DNA of 28,461 bases. Origin: Candidatus Faecivivens stercoripullorum. Lineage in GTDB: Bacteria > Bacillota > Clostridia > Oscillospirales > Ruminococcaceae. Positions 2,291 through 22,906 of this stretch are shown piece after piece. Under the pieces are notes generated by a model. That model searched no databases. It was not told the origin of the DNA and was given only the letters and a program-made list of their open reading frames with translations. The DNA is taken from assembly GCA_018715285.1 (NCBI GenBank), contig DVLW01000203.1, positions 1-28,461 of the forward strand, read 5' to 3'. Positions within the stretch are counted from its first letter, which is position 1. Each line of letters opens with the position of its first letter. A program made the position numbers and the translations under genes.

Positions 2291-3196
2291 ATGAATTTGT
2301 TTGAAACAACAAATATCGGTCCCCTGACGCTGCCCGGTCATCTGATCCGCTCAGCCGTCGCCGAAGGACTTGCCGGGAAAAATGGCGAACCCCTTCCTCA
2401 GCTCGCCGCACACTACCGCCAGTTGACTCAAAACCAGACCGCCGCGATTATCTGCGGTCCTATCAGTGTGACTGGCATCAACCGTACACAGCCGCTGCTG
2501 AGCCTGCACAGCGTCAAACAGCTCGACTGCTACAGGCAGCTGACCGATGAAGTACATGATGCAAACGGGACCATTCTGGCACAGCTGTCCTATCCGTCTG
2601 AATGCCAGGAAAACCCGGGTGAAGCCGGATGGCGGCTGCTCCGGTCGCTGGAACGCAGCTATTCCCACTCTGCCGCCAAAGCCAAAGAGGCAAACTTTGA
2701 CGGAATCCAGCTGGATTTCACCTGTTATTCACTGCCCGGATGTTTTCTCTCGCTGCTGTATAACCAGCGCCGGGATGAATACGGCGGCGATATCCATGCA
2801 CGCATCCGGTTCCCAAGAGATATCCTGCGGGCAGTAAGGCGGGCAGTCGGACCGGATTACCCGATCTGGGTATCTCTGGAATCGGACGTCAACCGGATTT
2901 CGGTACAGGATCTGCTGATGACAGGCCAGTATCTCGCTTCGGCCGGAGCCGGTGCAATCGAAGTCTGCGGCAGTTTTCCGCCTCATCCGCCCCAACAGTT
3001 TGATGATTCGCTGCTTCCGCAGATACACCCGGCAGAGATGCTTTCCCGTATCGTTCCGGTCCCGGTCATCCTCACCGCCGGAATCAAAACGGTTATGGAG
3101 ATGCAATTGATTGCCCAAAGAAGCAAAATCCGATTTTTCGGTCTGTCAAAACAGTTGGAAGAAGACCCGGGATTTATTTATCGGATGATTCGGTGA
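2291..3196 (+). CDS. NADH:flavin oxidoreductase/Old Yellow Enzyme-like protein with degenerate catalytic motif
   Basis: LFETTNIGPLTL...IRSA, FDGIQL, FLS.LYNQRRDEYGG.IHARIRF motifs. Start moved to ATG 2291 behind GGAGG. Confidence 0.8.
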   Translation: MNLFETTNIGPLTLPGHLIRSAVAEGLAGKNGEPLPQLAAHYRQLTQNQTAAIICGPISVTGINRTQPLLSLHSVKQLDCYRQLTDEVHDANGTILAQLSYPSECQENPGEAGWRLLRSLERSYSHSAAKAKEANFDGIQLDFTCYSLPGCFLSLLYNQRRDEYGGDIHARIRFPRDILRAVRRAVGPDYPIWVSLESDVNRISVQDLLMTGQYLASAGAGAIEVCGSFPPHPPQQFDDSLLPQIHPAEMLSRIVPVPVILTAGIKTVMEMQLIAQRSKIRFFGLSKQLEEDPGFIYRMIR

Positions 3197-3227
3197 ATGT
3201 GTACCATCATTTTTCACAAAAACCATG

Positions 3228-3256
3228 TAGACACAGATGGATTCCTGTGCTATCAT
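3228..3256 (+). promoter_or_regulatory. sigma-A promoter for the hydrolase-acetyltransferase pair
   Basis: TAGACA-17 bp-TATCAT with extended -10 TG. Confidence 0.6.
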
Positions 3257-3343
3257 AATGATAGTAAGTCTGTCCCACGTTTGCCGGGTACAGACACACA
3301 CTGCTGCCGGAAATGATTTCCCGCAGTTTAAGGAGGGACCATC

Positions 3344-4348
3344 ATGCCGCGATTTAAACTGATTTCCGAAAAGAATTATATGAATCAGATGAATACCCGC
3401 GTTATTCCATCGCTCAAACCCTATCACACCGGCGGAACCGTCGAACGTATCGGCGGACAGCCGGTCCGGTGGGACTATTACCGCTGCCCGAACGCACGGG
3501 GAAGCATCATGATTTCCCATGGGTTCACCGAAAGCGGATATAAATTTATCGAAATGGTCTATTATTTTCATAAGATGGGGCTTAACGTCTGTACCGTCGA
3601 CCACCGCGGCCACGGCCGTTCCTGGCGCGGCGTGGACGAAGTTTCACTGACAGATGCGGATGACTTTTATGATTATGTACTCGATCTGCGCCAGGTGACG
3701 CTGGATGTGCTGCAAAAGAAGGGCGACGGCCCCTACCTGATTTACGGGCATTCGATGGGCGGCGCAATTGAAGCGGTACTGCTCAAACGTTTTCCTGACC
3801 TCTATTCAGCGGCGATCTTCAATGCCCCGATGATTCGCGCACAGACCGGCGGACTGCCGCTGGCACTCACCGGACTGATTGCCAAAATCGCTGTCCGGCT
3901 GGGATGGGGACAGAAACCTGTCTTTGTCCACCGGCTGTATGACCCCGAGGAATCGTTTGAAGAAAGTCCGGCCACTTCCAAAGCACGTTTTGAGTGGTAC
4001 AGCGATATGCGCCGACGCAATCCTTTTTACCGCAACAACGCCGCAACTTATAAATGGCTTCGCGAAACAGTCAAGGTCTGTACTGAACTGACCGGCAAAT
4101 ACGGTACCAGAGGTATCCGTATCCCGACGGTATTTTACATCGCCCAGCAGGATACCTTTGTCGACAGCGGCGCAATCCGAACCTTTGCTTCAAAGATTCC
4201 CCATGCGCGTATTGTCCAGATTCCGGCCTCGAAACATGAGATTTACCGGAGCGGAAACGACGCACTGGAAGTCTACCTCAATTCGATTGAAGCGTTCATC
4301 GATGAAAATATCGATGCGTCTGAAAGTGAAACCCAAAGGAGCGATTGA
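3344..4348 (+). CDS. Alpha/beta hydrolase, lysophospholipase L2/monoacylglycerol lipase-like
   Basis: SHGFTES, DHRGHGRS, nucleophile elbow GHSMGG, C-terminal KHEIY; AAGGAGG RBS. Confidence 0.88.
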   Translation: MPRFKLISEKNYMNQMNTRVIPSLKPYHTGGTVERIGGQPVRWDYYRCPNARGSIMISHGFTESGYKFIEMVYYFHKMGLNVCTVDHRGHGRSWRGVDEVSLTDADDFYDYVLDLRQVTLDVLQKKGDGPYLIYGHSMGGAIEAVLLKRFPDLYSAAIFNAPMIRAQTGGLPLALTGLIAKIAVRLGWGQKPVFVHRLYDPEESFEESPATSKARFEWYSDMRRRNPFYRNNAATYKWLRETVKVCTELTGKYGTRGIRIPTVFYIAQQDTFVDSGAIRTFASKIPHARIVQIPASKHEIYRSGNDALEVYLNSIEAFIDENIDASESETQRSD

Positions 4349-12145: not shown

Positions 12146-12236
12146 GGAGATGTATCGAAGTGGTCGTAACGAGAACGACTCGAAATCGTTTTGTCAGTAA
12201 AATGGCACGTGGGTTCGAATCCCACCATCTCCGCCA
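12146..12236 (+). tRNA. tRNA-Ser (anticodon CGA)
   Basis: Acceptor GGAGATG/CATCTCC, anticodon arm AACGA-CTCGAAA-TCGTT, long variable arm, T-arm GTGGG-TTCGAAT-CCCAC, discriminator G, encoded CCA. Confidence 0.96.
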
Positions 12237-12274
12237 GTTAAGAGATACCATGTAACAACGTGGTATCTCTTTTT
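12215..12274 (+). repeat. Direct repeat copy 1: tRNA-Ser 3' end plus terminator
   Basis: 57/60 identical to 12460-12519. Confidence 0.95.
12239..12274 (+). terminator. Intrinsic terminator of tRNA-Ser
   Basis: AAGAGATACCATG-TAACAA-CGTGGTATCTCTTTTT. Confidence 0.85.
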
Positions 12275-12293
12275 ATGTCCGCAAAACCTCTGT

Positions 12294-12470
12294 GTGGGAT
12301 TCGAACGGGAGCAGGCCCGGTGTCCGGGCGAACTTGATGACGAGGTTTGTACACGCCTTTGGTGCTCAGCAACTCAGGCGTTTCTTCCACGGTCATACGG
12401 TTCTTTCATGACAGTCCGGTGGGCTGTCAGAGCTGCGACCTGGCTCGCCCGCAGGCGAGTCGAATCCCAC
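12294..12470. mobile_element. Putative non-autonomous miniature element bounded by tRNA T-arm-derived inverted repeats
   Basis: GTGGGATTCGAAC (12294-12306) is the exact reverse complement of tRNA 12213-12225 and pairs with TCGAATCCCAC (12460-12470). It has several internal hairpins and its core recurs at about 19.96 kb. Mobility is inferred. Confidence 0.55.
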
Positions 12471-12519
12471 CATCTCCGCCAGTTAAGAGGTACCATGTAA
12501 TAACGTGGTACCTCTTTTT
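12460..12519 (+). repeat. Direct repeat copy 2: att-like duplicate of tRNA-Ser 3' end plus terminator
   Basis: TCGAATCCCACCATCTCCGCCAGTTAAGAG is exact for 30 nt, then the terminator carries three substitutions. Confidence 0.95.
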
Positions 12520-19438: not shown

Positions 19439-19843
19439 TTACATCCTCCGTCCGGCGGCGATTTTATCAAGTATTTCCCGGTCAGCCGGGCAGAAGGTGA
19501 ACTGTTCCAGTTCATCAGGAGCGGCCCAGCACATTTCCATATGCTCCAGCCGTCTGGGGACACCTGAAAGGATGGACGCAGTATAGACCTGCATACTCAG
19601 GTGCATTTCAGGGTAATCATATTCGACCTGTGCGAACAGTTCCCGTGGGCAGATTTCGACCGCCAGTTCTTCGCGGCATTCCCGGACGAGAGCCTGCTCG
19701 GGAGTTTCGCCGGGTTCGATTTTACCGCCGGCAAATTCCCACATACCAGCAAGAGTCTTTCCCTCAGGGCGGCGACAGATCAGCAGTTTACCGTCCTGTT
19801 CGATCATAGCCGCGACAACCTGTACTTTTTTCTTTTCCATCAT
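19439..19843 (-). CDS. mutT: MutT/NudG-like Nudix hydrolase
   Basis: VVAAMIEQDGKLLICRRP...WEFAGGKIEPGETPEQALVRECREEL. The symbol is by family resemblance only. Confidence 0.85.
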   Translation of the reverse strand: MMEKKKVQVVAAMIEQDGKLLICRRPEGKTLAGMWEFAGGKIEPGETPEQALVRECREELAVEICPRELFAQVEYDYPEMHLSMQVYTASILSGVPRRLEHMEMCWAAPDELEQFTFCPADREILDKIAAGRRM

Positions 19844-19880
19844 CACAACATCCCTTCACCGTCAAAATTCCCATATCTGT

Positions 19881-19910
19881 ATTATATACCACTCCCACCA
19901 CATTTGACAA
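19881..19910 (-). promoter_or_regulatory. sigma-A promoter for the mutT operon
   Basis: TTGTCA-18 bp-TATAAT, immediately downstream of the repeat element. Confidence 0.55.
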
Positions 19911-19911
19911 G

Positions 19912-20202
19912 GTGGCGTGTCGCCACGGACTTGTTCGCGGCGGAATGCTTCCGCTGCCTTGATGCAAAGGTCCGTTCACGCCGCTGGAGCTCAGCACTCG
20001 ACGGCTTCGACCCCGGCGCAGTGCCTGCGCTCCTTGATGCCGAAGTGATACCACGCTCCAAAAGGTGGCAAACCAACGCTTCGATCACGCACCAACATAA
20101 AGAGATTGTACGCACACACTATCCATCTGTTCACGCGAGCGCAGAACGAGTACCAATTTTCCGCAGATTTATGCCCACATGCTGTCCTGTGGACAGTTCA
20201 CG
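19912..20202. repeat. Intergenic palindromic repeat cluster (same family as the tRNA-Ser element)
   Basis: Four 3-nt-loop hairpins, two CTTGATG-N12-CACGC motifs 75 nt apart, and homology to 12333-12371 and 22146-22173. Confidence 0.8.
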
Positions 20203-20249
20203 ACACACAAAACCAACATCAATACCGCTGCTAAACATCCCATACATAC

Positions 20250-20283
20250 AAAAAGCCGGAAGCCCCATAAAGGCTTCCAGCTT
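20250..20283 (-). terminator. Intrinsic terminator of the DUF362 gene
   Basis: AAGCCGGAAGCC...GGCTTCCAGCTT stem with a minus-strand T-run. Confidence 0.75.
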
Positions 20284-20309
20284 ACTTTGCATACAGACAA
20301 AACCTGCAA

Positions 20310-21422
20310 TTATTCGACAGTAATCATCTCATATTCACGGCTGCCCATTCCCAGTTTAACAGCATGCTCGAGACAGCTCTGCCAGTTGGTTTCCGGGTGA
20401 ACATCGGTGAAATGATCGTGATGGCAGTGTTCCCGCTCGGTATCCAGTACCGAACCCGCCATTACCGGTGCACGGTTGCACAGGTCTGCACAGCACTGGT
20501 CCAGCGCGACCGGGTCAAACGATGCCAGCATACCAATATCCGGGATAATCGGAATATCATTCTCGGCATGGCAGTCGCAGAAGGGCGATACGTCAACAAT
20601 CAGGCTGATATGGAAGTTGGGACGTCCGTCGATAACTGCCTTGGTATACTCGGCAATCTTGCAGTTGAGAATATCATTTGCCTCATCGTAATCAGGGCTG
20701 ACCGCATCCTTGGGACATGCGCCGATGCAGCGTCCGCAGCCGACACAGCGGTCATGATTGATAGATGCCTTGCGGTTTTCGATGGTGATTGCGTCATGTG
20801 CGCAGTTTTTGCGGCAGAATCCACAGCCGACGCAAAGCGACTGATCGACCGAAGGTTTACCGGCAGAATGCATTTCCATCTTACCGCCGCGGGAACCGCA
20901 TCCCATGCCCAGGTTTTTGAACGCGCCGCCAAAACCGGTCGCCTCATGACCCTTGAAGTGGCTGAGCGAAATGATGATATCTGCGTCCATGACTGCCTTG
21001 CCGATCTTGGCATTCTTGACGTAAACGCCGCCTTCGACCGGTACTTCCACGTCATCGGTTCCCTTCAGACCGTCGCCGATAATGATCTGGCAGCCGGTAG
21101 TAAAGGGGTTATATCCATTTTCATAGGCTGCGTCCAGATGATCGAGCGCATTTTTTCTGCGTCCGACGTAAAGGGTGTTGCAGTCAGTCAGGAAAGGACG
21201 GCCGCCCAGTTCGCGGACCATATCTGCGACAACTTTGGCGTAATTGGGACGGAGATAGGCAAGGTTTCCGGGTTCACCGAAATGAATCTTGATGGCAGTA
21301 AACTTACCGTCAAAATCGATATTGCCCATTCCGGCAGTCTTGAGCAGTTTGCGCAGCTTGTCCAGCTGGCTGACGCCATTTTTACAGCGAAAGCTGGTGA
21401 AATATACTTTTGACTTTTCCAT
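20310..21422 (-). CDS. DUF362-domain protein with a 2x[4Fe-4S] ferredoxin insert
   Basis: IKIHFGEPGN, SHFKGHEATGFGGAFKNLGMG, CVGCGFCRKNC and CVGCGRCIGACP, SPFCDC. Start ATG 21422 behind GGAGG. Confidence 0.9.
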   Translation of the reverse strand: MEKSKVYFTSFRCKNGVSQLDKLRKLLKTAGMGNIDFDGKFTAIKIHFGEPGNLAYLRPNYAKVVADMVRELGGRPFLTDCNTLYVGRRKNALDHLDAAYENGYNPFTTGCQIIIGDGLKGTDDVEVPVEGGVYVKNAKIGKAVMDADIIISLSHFKGHEATGFGGAFKNLGMGCGSRGGKMEMHSAGKPSVDQSLCVGCGFCRKNCAHDAITIENRKASINHDRCVGCGRCIGACPKDAVSPDYDEANDILNCKIAEYTKAVIDGRPNFHISLIVDVSPFCDCHAENDIPIIPDIGMLASFDPVALDQCCADLCNRAPVMAGSVLDTEREHCHHDHFTDVHPETNWQSCLEHAVKLGMGSREYEMITVE

Positions 21423-21517
21423 AAAAAAATCCTCCCGGTATTTTTTACTATTATACAACCTTGAGTGAACTCCATGTCAAGCTCCGGCAGAAAATTTGAG
21501 GAAAATTCGATATTCTA

Positions 21518-21546
21518 TTGACAGACAGCAAACCATATGTTACAAT
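21518..21546 (+). promoter_or_regulatory. sigma-A promoter of padR
   Basis: TTGACA-17 bp-TACAAT with extended -10 TG. Confidence 0.8.
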
Positions 21547-21551
21547 TACCT

Positions 21552-21593
21552 CATCAGATGTAGTACATCAGGTGTAGTACGACAGATAAAGTA
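21552..21593 (+). promoter_or_regulatory. Tandem 14-bp repeats, probable PadR autoregulatory operator
   Basis: CATCAGATGTAGTA / CATCAGGTGTAGTA / CGACAGATAAAGTA; the first two contain a CATC-A-GRTG dyad; located between the -10 and the RBS. Confidence 0.65.
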
Positions 21594-21608
21594 AAGGAGC
21601 GTGAGTAT

Positions 21609-22004
21609 TTGATCAGCAGTGATATCCTCCGCGGATATAATGACATCATCGTTCTCGGGCTGCTTATCGGGCAGGATTCCTATGGATATAATCTGATGCA
21701 GGAAATATCCGTCCGCAGCGGGCATACCTGGCAGATGAAGGAAACAACCCTGTATTCGGTCCTGTCCCGGCTGGAAAAGAACGGGCTGGTGACCTCCTAC
21801 TCGGGCACCGAAACGATGGGCCGCAAGCGAACCTATTTCCATATCACGCCGGAAGGAATGGACTATTACCAGCAAAAATGCGCCGAATGGATGGAAACAA
21901 AACAACTGATCGACCGGTTTACCCTGCCGACACTTCTTCCATCATCTGTCAGGAAAGATGCGGCAGAATACCAGCTGGACAAATTCCTGAGCAAAATTGA
22001 GTAA
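21609..22004 (+). CDS. PadR-family transcriptional regulator
   Basis: SYGYNLMQEI...ETTLYSVLSRLEKNGLVTSY...GRKRTYFHITPEG; TTG start behind AAGGAG. Confidence 0.92.
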   Translation: MISSDILRGYNDIIVLGLLIGQDSYGYNLMQEISVRSGHTWQMKETTLYSVLSRLEKNGLVTSYSGTETMGRKRTYFHITPEGMDYYQQKCAEWMETKQLIDRFTLPTLLPSSVRKDAAEYQLDKFLSKIE

Positions 22005-22033
22005 AACTTTTTTACTCGGACACAGCAGACCAG

Positions 22034-22173
22034 CGCGAACAAGTCAGCAGTTAAAGGCTTTAAGTTCCATTTTGCACAACGTAACAGCCGCGACCACTCA
22101 CGTTGTTTCTTTTACGACAGAGGCCGTCGGAACGCGGCCGACCAACGCGAACATGTCCGCGGCGACACGCCGC
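22034..22173 (+). repeat. Intergenic repeat-family copy between padR and its partner gene
   Basis: CGCGAACAAGTC at 22034-22045; 22146-22173 matches the reverse complement of 19912-19939 at 25/28. Confidence 0.75.
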
Positions 22174-22213
22174 CACGCCGCACAATAATCTTTATGAAGG
22201 GATGCAGACAAAT

Positions 22214-22906
22214 ATGAGTAAAGTGACCGAATATATCGATAACCTTTTTTACCTGATGCCGCGTACCGAAGCAGCGGCAGAAATGCGGCAGAAACTGATC
22301 GAAAGCAGTGAGGATAAATATGAAGCGCTGCTCAGCTGGGGACGCAGTGAGGACGAAGCGCTGGGAATTGTGGTAAGTGAGTTCGGCAGCATGGAGGAAA
22401 TCTGTGAGGAACTGGGCGTTAACCCGCTTGGGGCAACCAACAACCTTAATGCTGTTCAGGAAATGCACCTTGGTTTTGCGCAGCTTGGGAAACGGTTTGC
22501 GATGGGACTTTCAGCTGGAATCATGCTGTGTATTCTGGGGCTGCTGGGATGTATCTTTTTTTCCGAGGTGTTCTGGTCGGATATGATGGCGGTCACATCG
22601 CTGTTTTTGCTGGGCGGTGCCGGTGCGGTCGTGATTGTCTATTCCGCACTCGGATACGCACGCAATAAAAAGCTGCTCCAGATGGGCATTTCCCCTTTTC
22701 AGATGAAAAATACTGGCGGCAGACACTGGACCAAAAAGGCGGAGGAAGTGATCTGCTCGCTAATTATGCTCGGCGTGACAGCACTTTTCTTTTTGGCAGG
22801 TGTACTGGGCGGTGCATGGCATCCGGCATGGGTGCTGTTCCCGCTGGGTGGCATCCTGTGCGGTATCATCTCGGTGATACTGGAAGCCATCGGCAGATCA
22901 AACTGA
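22214..22906 (+). CDS. PadR-associated membrane protein with an N-terminal helical 'permease prefix'/HAAS-type domain
   Basis: YIDNLF...EMRQKLIESSEDKYEALLSWGRSEDEALGIVVSEFGSMEEI followed by 4 TM segments ending WHPAWVLFP. Start 22214 preferred over 22103. Confidence 0.8.
   Translation: MSKVTEYIDNLFYLMPRTEAAAEMRQKLIESSEDKYEALLSWGRSEDEALGIVVSEFGSMEEICEELGVNPLGATNNLNAVQEMHLGFAQLGKRFAMGLSAGIMLCILGLLGCIFFSEVFWSDMMAVTSLFLLGGAGAVVIVYSALGYARNKKLLQMGISPFQMKNTGGRHWTKKAEEVICSLIMLGVTALFFLAGVLGGAWHPAWVLFPLGGILCGIISVILEAIGRSN

Follow-up and report, generated by a model that had tools for sequence, protein, structure and literature searches.

The 28-nt module that occurs twice in the window (the whole 28,461-nt stretch analysed here, from Candidatus Faecivivens stercoripullorum, an uncultured member of the Clostridia from the chicken gut) is the hairpin-bearing 3' end piece of a ~100-nt non-coding repeat unit. 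The repeat family is undescribed and of the REP/BIME/BOX kind, a new example of a familiar type of bacterial interspersed repeat. We consider it probable that the module marks the 3' end of a lineage-specific, modular, hairpin-rich intergenic repeat that lives at the DNA level. In the labels used here, G000 is the source genome and G001, G005, G009, G010 and G014 are other species. The repeat-related features of the window and the adjoining promoter-like site are:

12315..12341, minus strand: third window locus, a CATCAAG-type linker with a GCCCGG-ACA-CCGGGC hairpin, downstream of tRNA-Ser.
19881..19910, minus strand: promoter-like site of the NUDIX gene (TTGTCA, 18-nt spacer, TATAAT; 11 of 12 consensus positions), kept in G005.
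19912..19939, minus strand: terminal module of 28 nt, with linker 19927-19939 and hairpin 19912-19926 (6-bp stem, ACA loop), the hairpin folding in prediction.
19940..19966, minus strand: preceding module, a CATCAAGG-type linker with a GCGGAA-GCA-TTCCGC hairpin, kept in G005.
19967..20062, minus strand: further mosaic modules of the family, with BLAST matches at dozens of genomic places.
20110..20144, plus strand: inverted, TIR-like copy of the core unit's 5' segment in an otherwise minus-oriented array, as compared with core 5' ends by eye.
20182..20196, no strand assigned: CTGTCC-TGT-GGACAG hairpin of the second hairpin class of the mosaic, its loop class known from repeat regions.
~22018..22049, plus strand: truncated and decayed remainder of the 3' portion of an older unit, with an orphan 12-mer at 22034-22045 and a likeness to the core 3' end judged by eye.
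22076..22173, plus strand: complete, diverged repeat unit, with core 22076-22145, internal covarying hairpin 22122-22139 and terminal 28-nt module 22146-22173.

The module consists of a 12-nt linker of the type GC-R-A-W-C-W-D-G-K-S-H, in which GTAG is absent, and, 3' of it, a 15-nt GC hairpin with a 6-bp stem and a 3-nt loop. An earlier note on this DNA quoted the two copies correctly. Read on the minus and plus strand, respectively, 19912-19939 and 22146-22173 differ at three sites, one A/T difference in the linker and a paired T-A versus C-G difference in the stem. The earlier note took the latter for a compensatory change between the two copies. The paired difference is real, but the stem types GTGGCG and GCGGCG are two abundant subfamilies with ~12-16 copies each in G000 (where the commonest type, GCGGAA-GCA-TTCCGC, has 21), and it therefore represents family-wide covariation and not a single event within the window. 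Similarly, the two copies are inverted on the contig, as had been noted, but relative to the gene that each precedes they are alike, with the hairpin end facing the downstream gene. A 12-mer search with W at position 9 and at most one mismatch returned three matches in the window (0.44 expected from shuffles, with 0 of 100 reaching three). The match at 22034-22045, previously described as a third partial copy, is a remnant of a decayed, truncated unit, and no family-type hairpin lies behind it.

Simple units are asymmetric in that their 5' end differs from the 3' hairpin end, and they have no terminal inverted repeats. By eye, some composite copies are flanked by an imperfect inverted repeat of ~27 nt, and the core 5' segment is the sole part that is found inverted as well. 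Repeat regions also hold a second class of hairpins with GGT, ACC or TGT loops.

At 19.9 kb, the 28-nt module closes its array, with 1 nt between it and the -35 box. It adjoins the CATCAAGG-linker hairpin module at 19940-19966 on the minus strand and shares a family with the CATCAAG/CTTGATG-linker hairpins, both as proposed earlier. The block 19967..20062 includes the hairpin GCGCAG-GCA-CTGCGC at 20016-20030 and its CATCAAGG linker, and a 16-mer repeat mask flagged 19909-20062 and 20123-20145. The whole array stops 1 nt upstream of the promoter-like site of the NUDIX gene (19439-19846, minus strand), in which a NUDIX domain was found. The unit at 22076..22173 lies in the spacer that separates the PadR gene from the one after it and was also found in contigs of other samples; it was recovered with an nhmmer E-value of 1.3e-19 and a covariance-model score of 83 bits, and its nearest other copy is 87% identical. 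One repeat family accounts for the odd intergenic features at 19.9 kb, 22.0-22.2 kb and 12.3 kb, and this shared membership calls for caution in reading them as regulators of the NUDIX gene or the PadR operon. At both of these gene loci the elements simply lengthen spacers, upstream of the NUDIX promoter in one case and inside the PadR operon in the other.

We used pattern, nhmmer and covariance-model searches to examine the abundance of the family in G000, a draft genome of 2.0 Mb. These returned 23 exact copies of the 12-mer plus hairpin, 88 linker-plus-hairpin modules (none in the reversed-genome control) and 72 copies of the ~100-nt unit. The mosaic hairpin-repeat family that includes this unit makes up ~1% of the assembly, and a single similarity network joins 118 of 142 repeated regions, ~25 kb in all. 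Only two of the 88 modules fall inside called open reading frames, so the family is extragenic. For 25 of the 142 regions a contig end is at most 100 nt away, and the repeats interrupt short-read assemblies. There are no pairs of identical copies of the unit, nearest-neighbour identity having a median of 91% and a maximum of 97%, and very recent bursts are therefore not indicated. When the degenerate pattern was searched for genome-wide in other taxa, the single matches seen in many high-GC genomes were set aside as chance and only multi-hit Clostridia assemblies were counted.

The terminal hairpin covaries in G000 and in its relatives. In G000, 97.5% of alignment cells are paired and five of the six base pairs change on both sides; the outcome was the same for 59 distinct copies from relatives (97.5-97.9% paired across both sets), and none of 500 shuffles scored as high. 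The internal hairpin also covaries, and both local hairpins stay paired across many different stem sequences. The earlier note had named two outcomes that would speak against it, an absence of further genomic copies and an absence of covariation in a larger alignment; given the many copies and the covarying stem, neither applies. A global RNA fold of the unit was rejected: the long-range helix P1 is without covariation, the long-range helix P2 has many mismatches at one pair (G-U on one strand, C-A on the other) and single-sequence fold z-scores reach only -0.9 to -3.0. Rfam gave no match at gathering score, none for 6.2 kb of canonical copies at E ≤1, only noise at E ≤1 for a 450-nt composite unit and only noise at E ≤10 for the window region. 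A strand test comparing G-T with A-C mismatches gave 1 versus 6 in nine imperfect hairpins, and hairpins of the relatives had 12 wobble cells versus 7 non-standard cells; the test was discarded as too small and inconsistent.

The repeat occurs in a single genus, and there only in one subclade. Seven of the 15 sampled species of the genus that includes Ca. Faecivivens carry it, in 72, 64, 57, 43, 24, 15 and 9 copies, the other eight have none, and none of 60 other genera of the taxonomic family does. Within the subclade, sites filled in one species are empty in the next, and whole modules have been gained or lost between species and strains. The closest species, G005, is without exactly 23 nt of the 19.9-kb module (19913-19935), its promoter being intact, and without a 74-nt block within 19967..20062. 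In a strain contig from run X16, 19911 is joined to 20032 with one hairpin between them and 19912-20031 (120 nt) is skipped, a form that a deletion between two CATCAAGG linkers could produce. In G000 the spacer beside PadR measures 209 nt; it is 23 nt long in G009 and similarly short in G014 and G001, the unit at 22076..22173 being absent there. Replacement of the PadR C-terminus by insertion was ruled out by translation, which gave diverged but homologous tails of similar length. Intergenic sites of contig C192 hold 525-1082 nt of repeats in G000 versus 11-123 nt in G001 and G014, and at two sites, where the junction is flush with a stop codon, the hairpin differs among two to four species.

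The modules are placed in a regular way. In 47 of 48 intergenic regions of G000, linker-hairpin modules share one orientation, which with repeats masked is unbiased relative to genes (17 antisense, 14 sense); an apparent bias against transcription, 22 to 4 by a crude open-reading-frame call, was gone after this masking. It is the hairpin end and not the 5' end that is often flush with a -35 box, a ribosome-binding site or a convergent stop codon. Of 21 hairpin ends that face a convergent stop codon, 7 stop 0-1 nt short of it, and 8-9 copies have theirs directly at a -35 box, whereas none of 12 5' ends lies within 3 nt of a stop codon. In G000, TTR occurs at offset 0-1 after the terminal hairpin in 16 of 59 cases versus a background of 7.2% (p = 3e-6), and CTTG or CTTA follows many terminal hairpins; at the relatives' loci TTR was found in 2 of 21, the flush stops there being TTA, CTA and TCA. 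Since the TTR signal, significant in G000, was not replicated in relatives, TTR was dropped as an insertion target and we retain only the reading that the hairpin end abuts functional boundaries.

The account that we favour, a modular repeat living at the DNA level, would combine three processes. The family may persist as selfish or near-neutral DNA, its arrays might be rearranged through recombination or slippage from one conserved linker to another, and new sites might be seeded by a trans-acting, hairpin-recognising activity on single-stranded DNA that leaves no target duplication. A function in RNA or gene expression could account equally well for the flush junctions and the perfect hairpins.

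Under such a function, the modules would act in RNA, with hairpins after stop codons ending or stabilising the upstream mRNA, hairpins before promoters insulating, and selection keeping both the pairing and the flushness. The covariation of the hairpins and their position 0-1 nt past the stop codon at a third of the convergent cases are consistent with this, as is the C260 site, where the non-carrier G010 has a canonical terminator and four carriers have a flush hairpin module. The linker, which on the reverse strand lies 3' of each hairpin and is weakly T-rich, points the same way, but there is no T-run behind the hairpins and a terminator scan found none in the arrays. Contigs from RNA libraries run from PadR through the element into the following gene; they are, however, uninformative on strand, transcript ends and expression level. 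(Contig depth was abandoned as a measure of expression, as other copies raise it in DNA runs as well and the two RNA runs differ.) Against a role in RNA also stand the unbiased orientation relative to transcription, the unrelated stems at one junction across species, the sites that are empty in close relatives and the restriction of covariation to local hairpins, long-range helices being without it. Moreover, a hairpin directly after a stop codon would be melted by the terminating ribosome. We regard this explanation as rather unlikely.

It is also possible, if unlikely, that the repeats are miniature non-autonomous derivatives of a rolling-circle or single-strand HUH transposon (IS91-like or IS200/IS605-like). 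The terminal hairpin would then be an ori-like end, insertion beside a short target would leave no duplication, and repeated insertion at the retained target would build head-to-tail arrays. The arrays are indeed in direct orientation, new modules appear exactly at the flank junction and the GC hairpin with its triloop is subterminal. Such elements need no terminal inverted repeat, and no target duplication was seen on comparing filled and empty sites at C149, the sole cleanly comparable site. The CTTG or CTTA after many terminal hairpins in G000 recalls IS91, an element with subterminal palindromes that inserts without duplication and requires CTTG or GTTC beside its oriIS end (PMC13181058), but the relatives do not share the junction motif. 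Further, an indel of 23 nt is very small for a transposition unit, and there is no bias in orientation relative to gene direction, our proxy for replication direction. A search for the Y2 transposase PF04986 found no match in 15 genomes, although the same search was silent in 14 control genomes too. PF01797 (Y1) is absent from five carrier species, one of them 98% complete, and the two PF01797 genes of G000 look like ordinary IS200-like genes without a flanking repeat; a RAYT/IS200 partner was rejected. No gene family was found to recur beside the arrays. The "terminal recognition hairpin" proposed in the earlier note is terminal, as the 3' module of the unit or array, but a role in recognition is at best putative: no partner enzyme was found, no target duplication was seen at the one comparable site and the TTR preference was not replicated.

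Alternatively, the arrays may grow by a hairpin-directed process distinct from both Y1 and Y2 HUH transposition, with linker-hairpin cassettes of 23-28 nt added or swapped at one growing end, which would stay directly against a stop codon, a ribosome-binding site or a -35 box. We consider this version quite unlikely; if true, non-coding DNA in gut Clostridia would have a new route of spread, and terminator or insulator roles might have been taken over by the arrays. Finally, each of the two window copies precedes and points at a gene, one of them 1 nt from a -35 box, and the 12-nt linker is conserved, but an operator for a DNA-binding regulator of the downstream NUDIX and PadR-operon membrane protein genes is very improbable, as the same promoter has a different hairpin or none of this kind in G005 and the strain variant, the genes downstream of the 8-9 promoter-flush copies seem unrelated (judged from N-terminal sequences only), copies that face stop codons or are antisense are equally numerous, and copy number ranges from 0 to 72 within one genus.

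As a DNA-level repeat, the family resembles the REP, BIME and REPIN elements of Proteobacteria in its short GC-rich extragenic hairpins, its conserved sequence 5' of a variable, covarying stem, its tens or more of copies per genome, its mosaic clusters with other short motifs and its restriction to a lineage. With a 15-nt hairpin and a 12-nt linker it also falls within the 20-40 nt of an extragenic palindrome. It differs from REP in lacking the GTAG head and in having a Clostridia bacterium as host, from REPIN and BIME in that modules stand head-to-tail and not as inverted pairs, and from REP-RAYT systems (TnpA-REP, Y1 HUH) in that no RAYT gene is flanked by the repeat and five carrier species have no PF01797.

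BOX of Streptococcus pneumoniae (boxA-boxB(n)-boxC) and SPRITE/RUP are likewise intergenic, hairpin-rich units with a variable number of internal modules, occupy ~1% of a 2-Mb Firmicutes genome and have no transposase of their own; the likeness to BOX is one of modular architecture only, and a relation in sequence is not expected. Unlike in BOX, the variable part here is a 23-28-nt cassette of linker and triloop hairpin with many alternative stems, and one end of the repeat is flush with gene signals. Terminator-like repeats of the SPRITE or bcr1 kind differ in that the present arrays hold no GC hairpin followed by a T-run and are unbiased in orientation. The ends of IS91 (Y2 HUH, rolling-circle) and IS200/IS605 and their miniature derivatives (PATEs) share asymmetry, subterminal hairpins and the lack of target duplication, and IS91 keeps CTTG or GTTC beside one end (PMC13181058). 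The present units are, however, far smaller, no cognate transposase was found, and the junction motif is inconsistent across species. MITEs, as derivatives of DDE transposons, differ from the simple units, which are without terminal inverted repeats and, at C149, without target-site duplication.

The Gut-1 RNA motif (RF01706) is alike in its arrays of mini-hairpins, GNA-type triloops, fixed linkers, freely varying self-complementary stems and scatter through the intergenic DNA of gut Clostridia, but its linker and core unit differ and its Rfam model gave no match at E ≤1-10. We know of no mobilising enzyme for hairpin-array repeat families of this sort. The present family offers a well-delimited case in uncultured gut Clostridia, with ~70 copies per 2-Mb genome, a phyletic boundary in one genus and both filled and empty sites, and the gapless contact of its hairpins with neighbouring gene signals, together with the exchange of hairpin cassettes at fixed junctions, gives testable clues to how such repeats spread.

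Both 28-nt modules had been quoted correctly in the earlier note, and each consists of a 12-nt linker followed by a hairpin whose 6-bp stem encloses an ACA loop. One linker position distinguishes the two, as does one stem pair, in which both sides are altered. A third copy of the 12-mer is indeed present, giving three matches in the window versus 0.44 expected from shuffles, and the 19.9-kb module directly follows another linker-hairpin module, whose linker is CATCAAGG. The relevant features, including the repeated regions identified in the window by a 16-mer census of the host genome, are as follows.

Repeat features of the window
12314-12330: repeated region
19909-20062: repeated region
19912-19939, minus strand: 28-nt module
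20123-20145: repeated region
22034: third copy of the 12-mer
22076-22173: full unit in the PadR operon spacer
22102-22174: repeated region
22146-22173, plus strand: 28-nt module

The host draft genome (2.0 Mb in 266 contigs, 50% G+C, 84% complete; the window is its contig C24) contains 23 occurrences of the 12-mer, all of which except the one at 22034 are followed by a perfect hairpin with a 6-bp variable stem and a 3-nt loop. Extending the copies revealed a unit of ~100 nt that comprises, from 5' to 3', a conserved segment, an internal hairpin with two variant forms, a second conserved segment with the linker at its end, and the terminal hairpin. Profile and covariance-model searches each found 72 units in the host genome; the full unit at 22076-22173 is among the more diverged copies (nearest relative 87%), and other short modules belonging to this family make up a mosaic in the 19.9-20.2-kb spacer. 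The census yielded 142 repeated regions totalling 21.5 kb, 118 of which are joined in a single similarity network. Linker-plus-hairpin modules number 88 (79 perfect) versus none in a reversed-genome control, with GCA, ACA, GCT or ACT loops and discrete stem types (GCGGAA, 21 copies; GCACAG, 16; GCCCGG, 16; GTGGCG, 14; GCGGCG, 12; GCGCGG, 11; and others). The paired difference between the window's two modules, which had been called a compensatory change, is therefore a contrast between two common stem types. In substance the earlier reading of a terminal hairpin from one family linking three loci holds, while a 'recognition' role is unproven.

A ~450-nt composite repeat dense with AT-richer perfect hairpins (C192:3365-3817 in locus L145, with similar copies at C149:2395-2843 and C39:18335-18776) connects into the same network. 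It has ~20 full or partial copies in the host and dozens in sister species G001, G014, G005 and G009 at 75-95% identity; it contains no notable ORF and matches no Rfam family. At 12213-12519 of the window, a GCCCGG hairpin module of the family lies behind tRNA-Ser amid duplicated tRNA 3'-end sequence.

In the terminal hairpin, 97.5% of cells are paired among 28 host-genome copies and 97.9% among 59 distinct copies from relatives, with both-side changes in five of the six pairs in each set; covariation is also seen in the internal hairpin. Two candidate long-range helices showed none, one never covarying and the other having 38 unpaired cells at one pair. Single-sequence folds were only mildly better than shuffles, and Rfam gave no family match to the repeat even at permissive thresholds. 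Constraint thus acts on local hairpins and not on a larger RNA fold.

Comparison with other species of the genus shows filled and empty sites. At the NUDIX promoter, the closest species, G005 (~87% identical at this locus), shares both the promoter and the preceding hairpin module; of the 28-nt module exactly 23 nt are missing, as is a 74-nt block, and G005 carries ~370 nt of other repeats. A strain variant is seen in a chicken-gut RNA library, one contig of which is identical to 19849-19911 and continues through a single hairpin to 20032, a form expected from deletion between two CATCAAGG linkers together with loss of the terminal module. The spacer between PadR and the next gene is 209 nt in the host versus 23 nt in G009, and is similarly short, without the element, in G014 and G001. 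The PadR tails are diverged yet homologous, so the insert sits wholly within the spacer. Relative to the G009 spacer, CTTT flanks both sides of the ~180-nt insert (22005-22013 and 22189-22194), which a 4-nt duplication or chance could explain; at the clean site C149:17254, where G001 and G010 are empty with the adjacent stop codon in the same place, filled and empty versions show no target duplication.

Three intergenic sites on contig C192 hold 525-1082 nt of repeats versus 11-123 nt in G001 and G014. In C192:1840-5210 (L145), a repeat cluster at 3128-3892 lies between a tail-sheath-like gene and the gene that follows it in a phage-tail-like cluster; G001 and G014 have only ~16 nt between the two genes. 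At C192:13300-13600 (L145), ~60-70 nt of a gene's 3' end is tandemly duplicated with a repeat-module block between the copies, and G009 has the same duplication without repeats (L152:3520-3680). At both C149 and C260:2164, different terminal hairpins occupy an identical junction in two to four species, and at C260:2164 a canonical terminator takes the place of the hairpin in non-carrier G010. An ORF running into the element at C187:5840-5960 (L148) is 4-7 residues longer in the host and G014 (L199) and ends ...MGE* in non-carrier G010 (L202); in G014 its frame reads across the terminal hairpin to a stop within the linker.

The repeats show no orientation bias with respect to the flanking genes (17 antisense, 14 sense), and linker-hairpin modules share one direction in 47 of 48 spacers. 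Functional signals frequently adjoin the hairpin end: a convergent ORF's stop codon is 0-1 nt away in 7 of 21 cases, a promoter-like -35 box is 0-6 nt away in 8 cases, the window's NUDIX promoter among them, and in some cases a ribosome-binding site lies only a few nt off. The 5' end came within 3 nt of a stop codon in 0 of 12 cases. In the host genome this flushness takes the form of TTR directly after 16 of 59 hairpins, versus a 7.2% background. Because this enrichment was not seen at relatives' loci (2 of 21), where flush stops are TTA, CTA and TCA, the junction rule seems to be contact with a boundary and not a sequence target. Such flushness might arise by hairpin-anchored deletions trimming neutral DNA, by module addition at the hairpin end or because the hairpin has a function in expression. 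A weak promoter-like match (22162-22189, plus strand; 9 of 12 positions) shortly precedes the gene at 22214; its first hexamer falls inside the terminal hairpin, running from the last stem pair across the ACA loop, and 22174-22181 tandemly duplicates 8 nt of that hairpin's 3' arm.

By covariance model, 7 of 15 species in the genus carry the repeat (72, 64, 57, 43, 24, 15 and 9 copies) and the other eight have no copies; it was also absent from 60 other genera of the family, each represented by one genome. The five carriers comparable at the DNA level over the window's PadR-DUF362 region are those most similar to the host there. Named assemblies with many matches (Ca. Faecivivens stercorigallinarum, Ruminococcaceae UBA1448 and several uncultured Clostridia/Oscillospiraceae MAGs) are, from their identical loci, the same genomes as G014, G009, G001 and G005. 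Most sequencing runs that contain the window come from chicken-gut, bird or other gut metagenomes.

The genes next to the arrays include no recurrent family. The host has two PF01797 (Y1) genes, ordinary IS200-like in appearance, with flanks unrelated to the repeat and end hairpins of their own (C163:133-486, locus L021; C136:3089-3445, locus L022); such genes were not found in five carrier sister species. PF04986 (Y2, IS91 family) was not found in 15 genomes, with control genomes equally silent. IS91-family elements make no duplication, have subterminal palindromes and retain CTTG or GTTC at one end (PMC13181058). The repeat has several traits in common with these elements; its membership of the family is not supported. 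No publication dealing with repeats in this genus was found. The module forms the hairpin-bearing end of an undescribed interspersed hairpin repeat of the REP/BIME/BOX class that is specific to a subclade of the genus, and the result is thus genuine and informative without representing a new kind of system.
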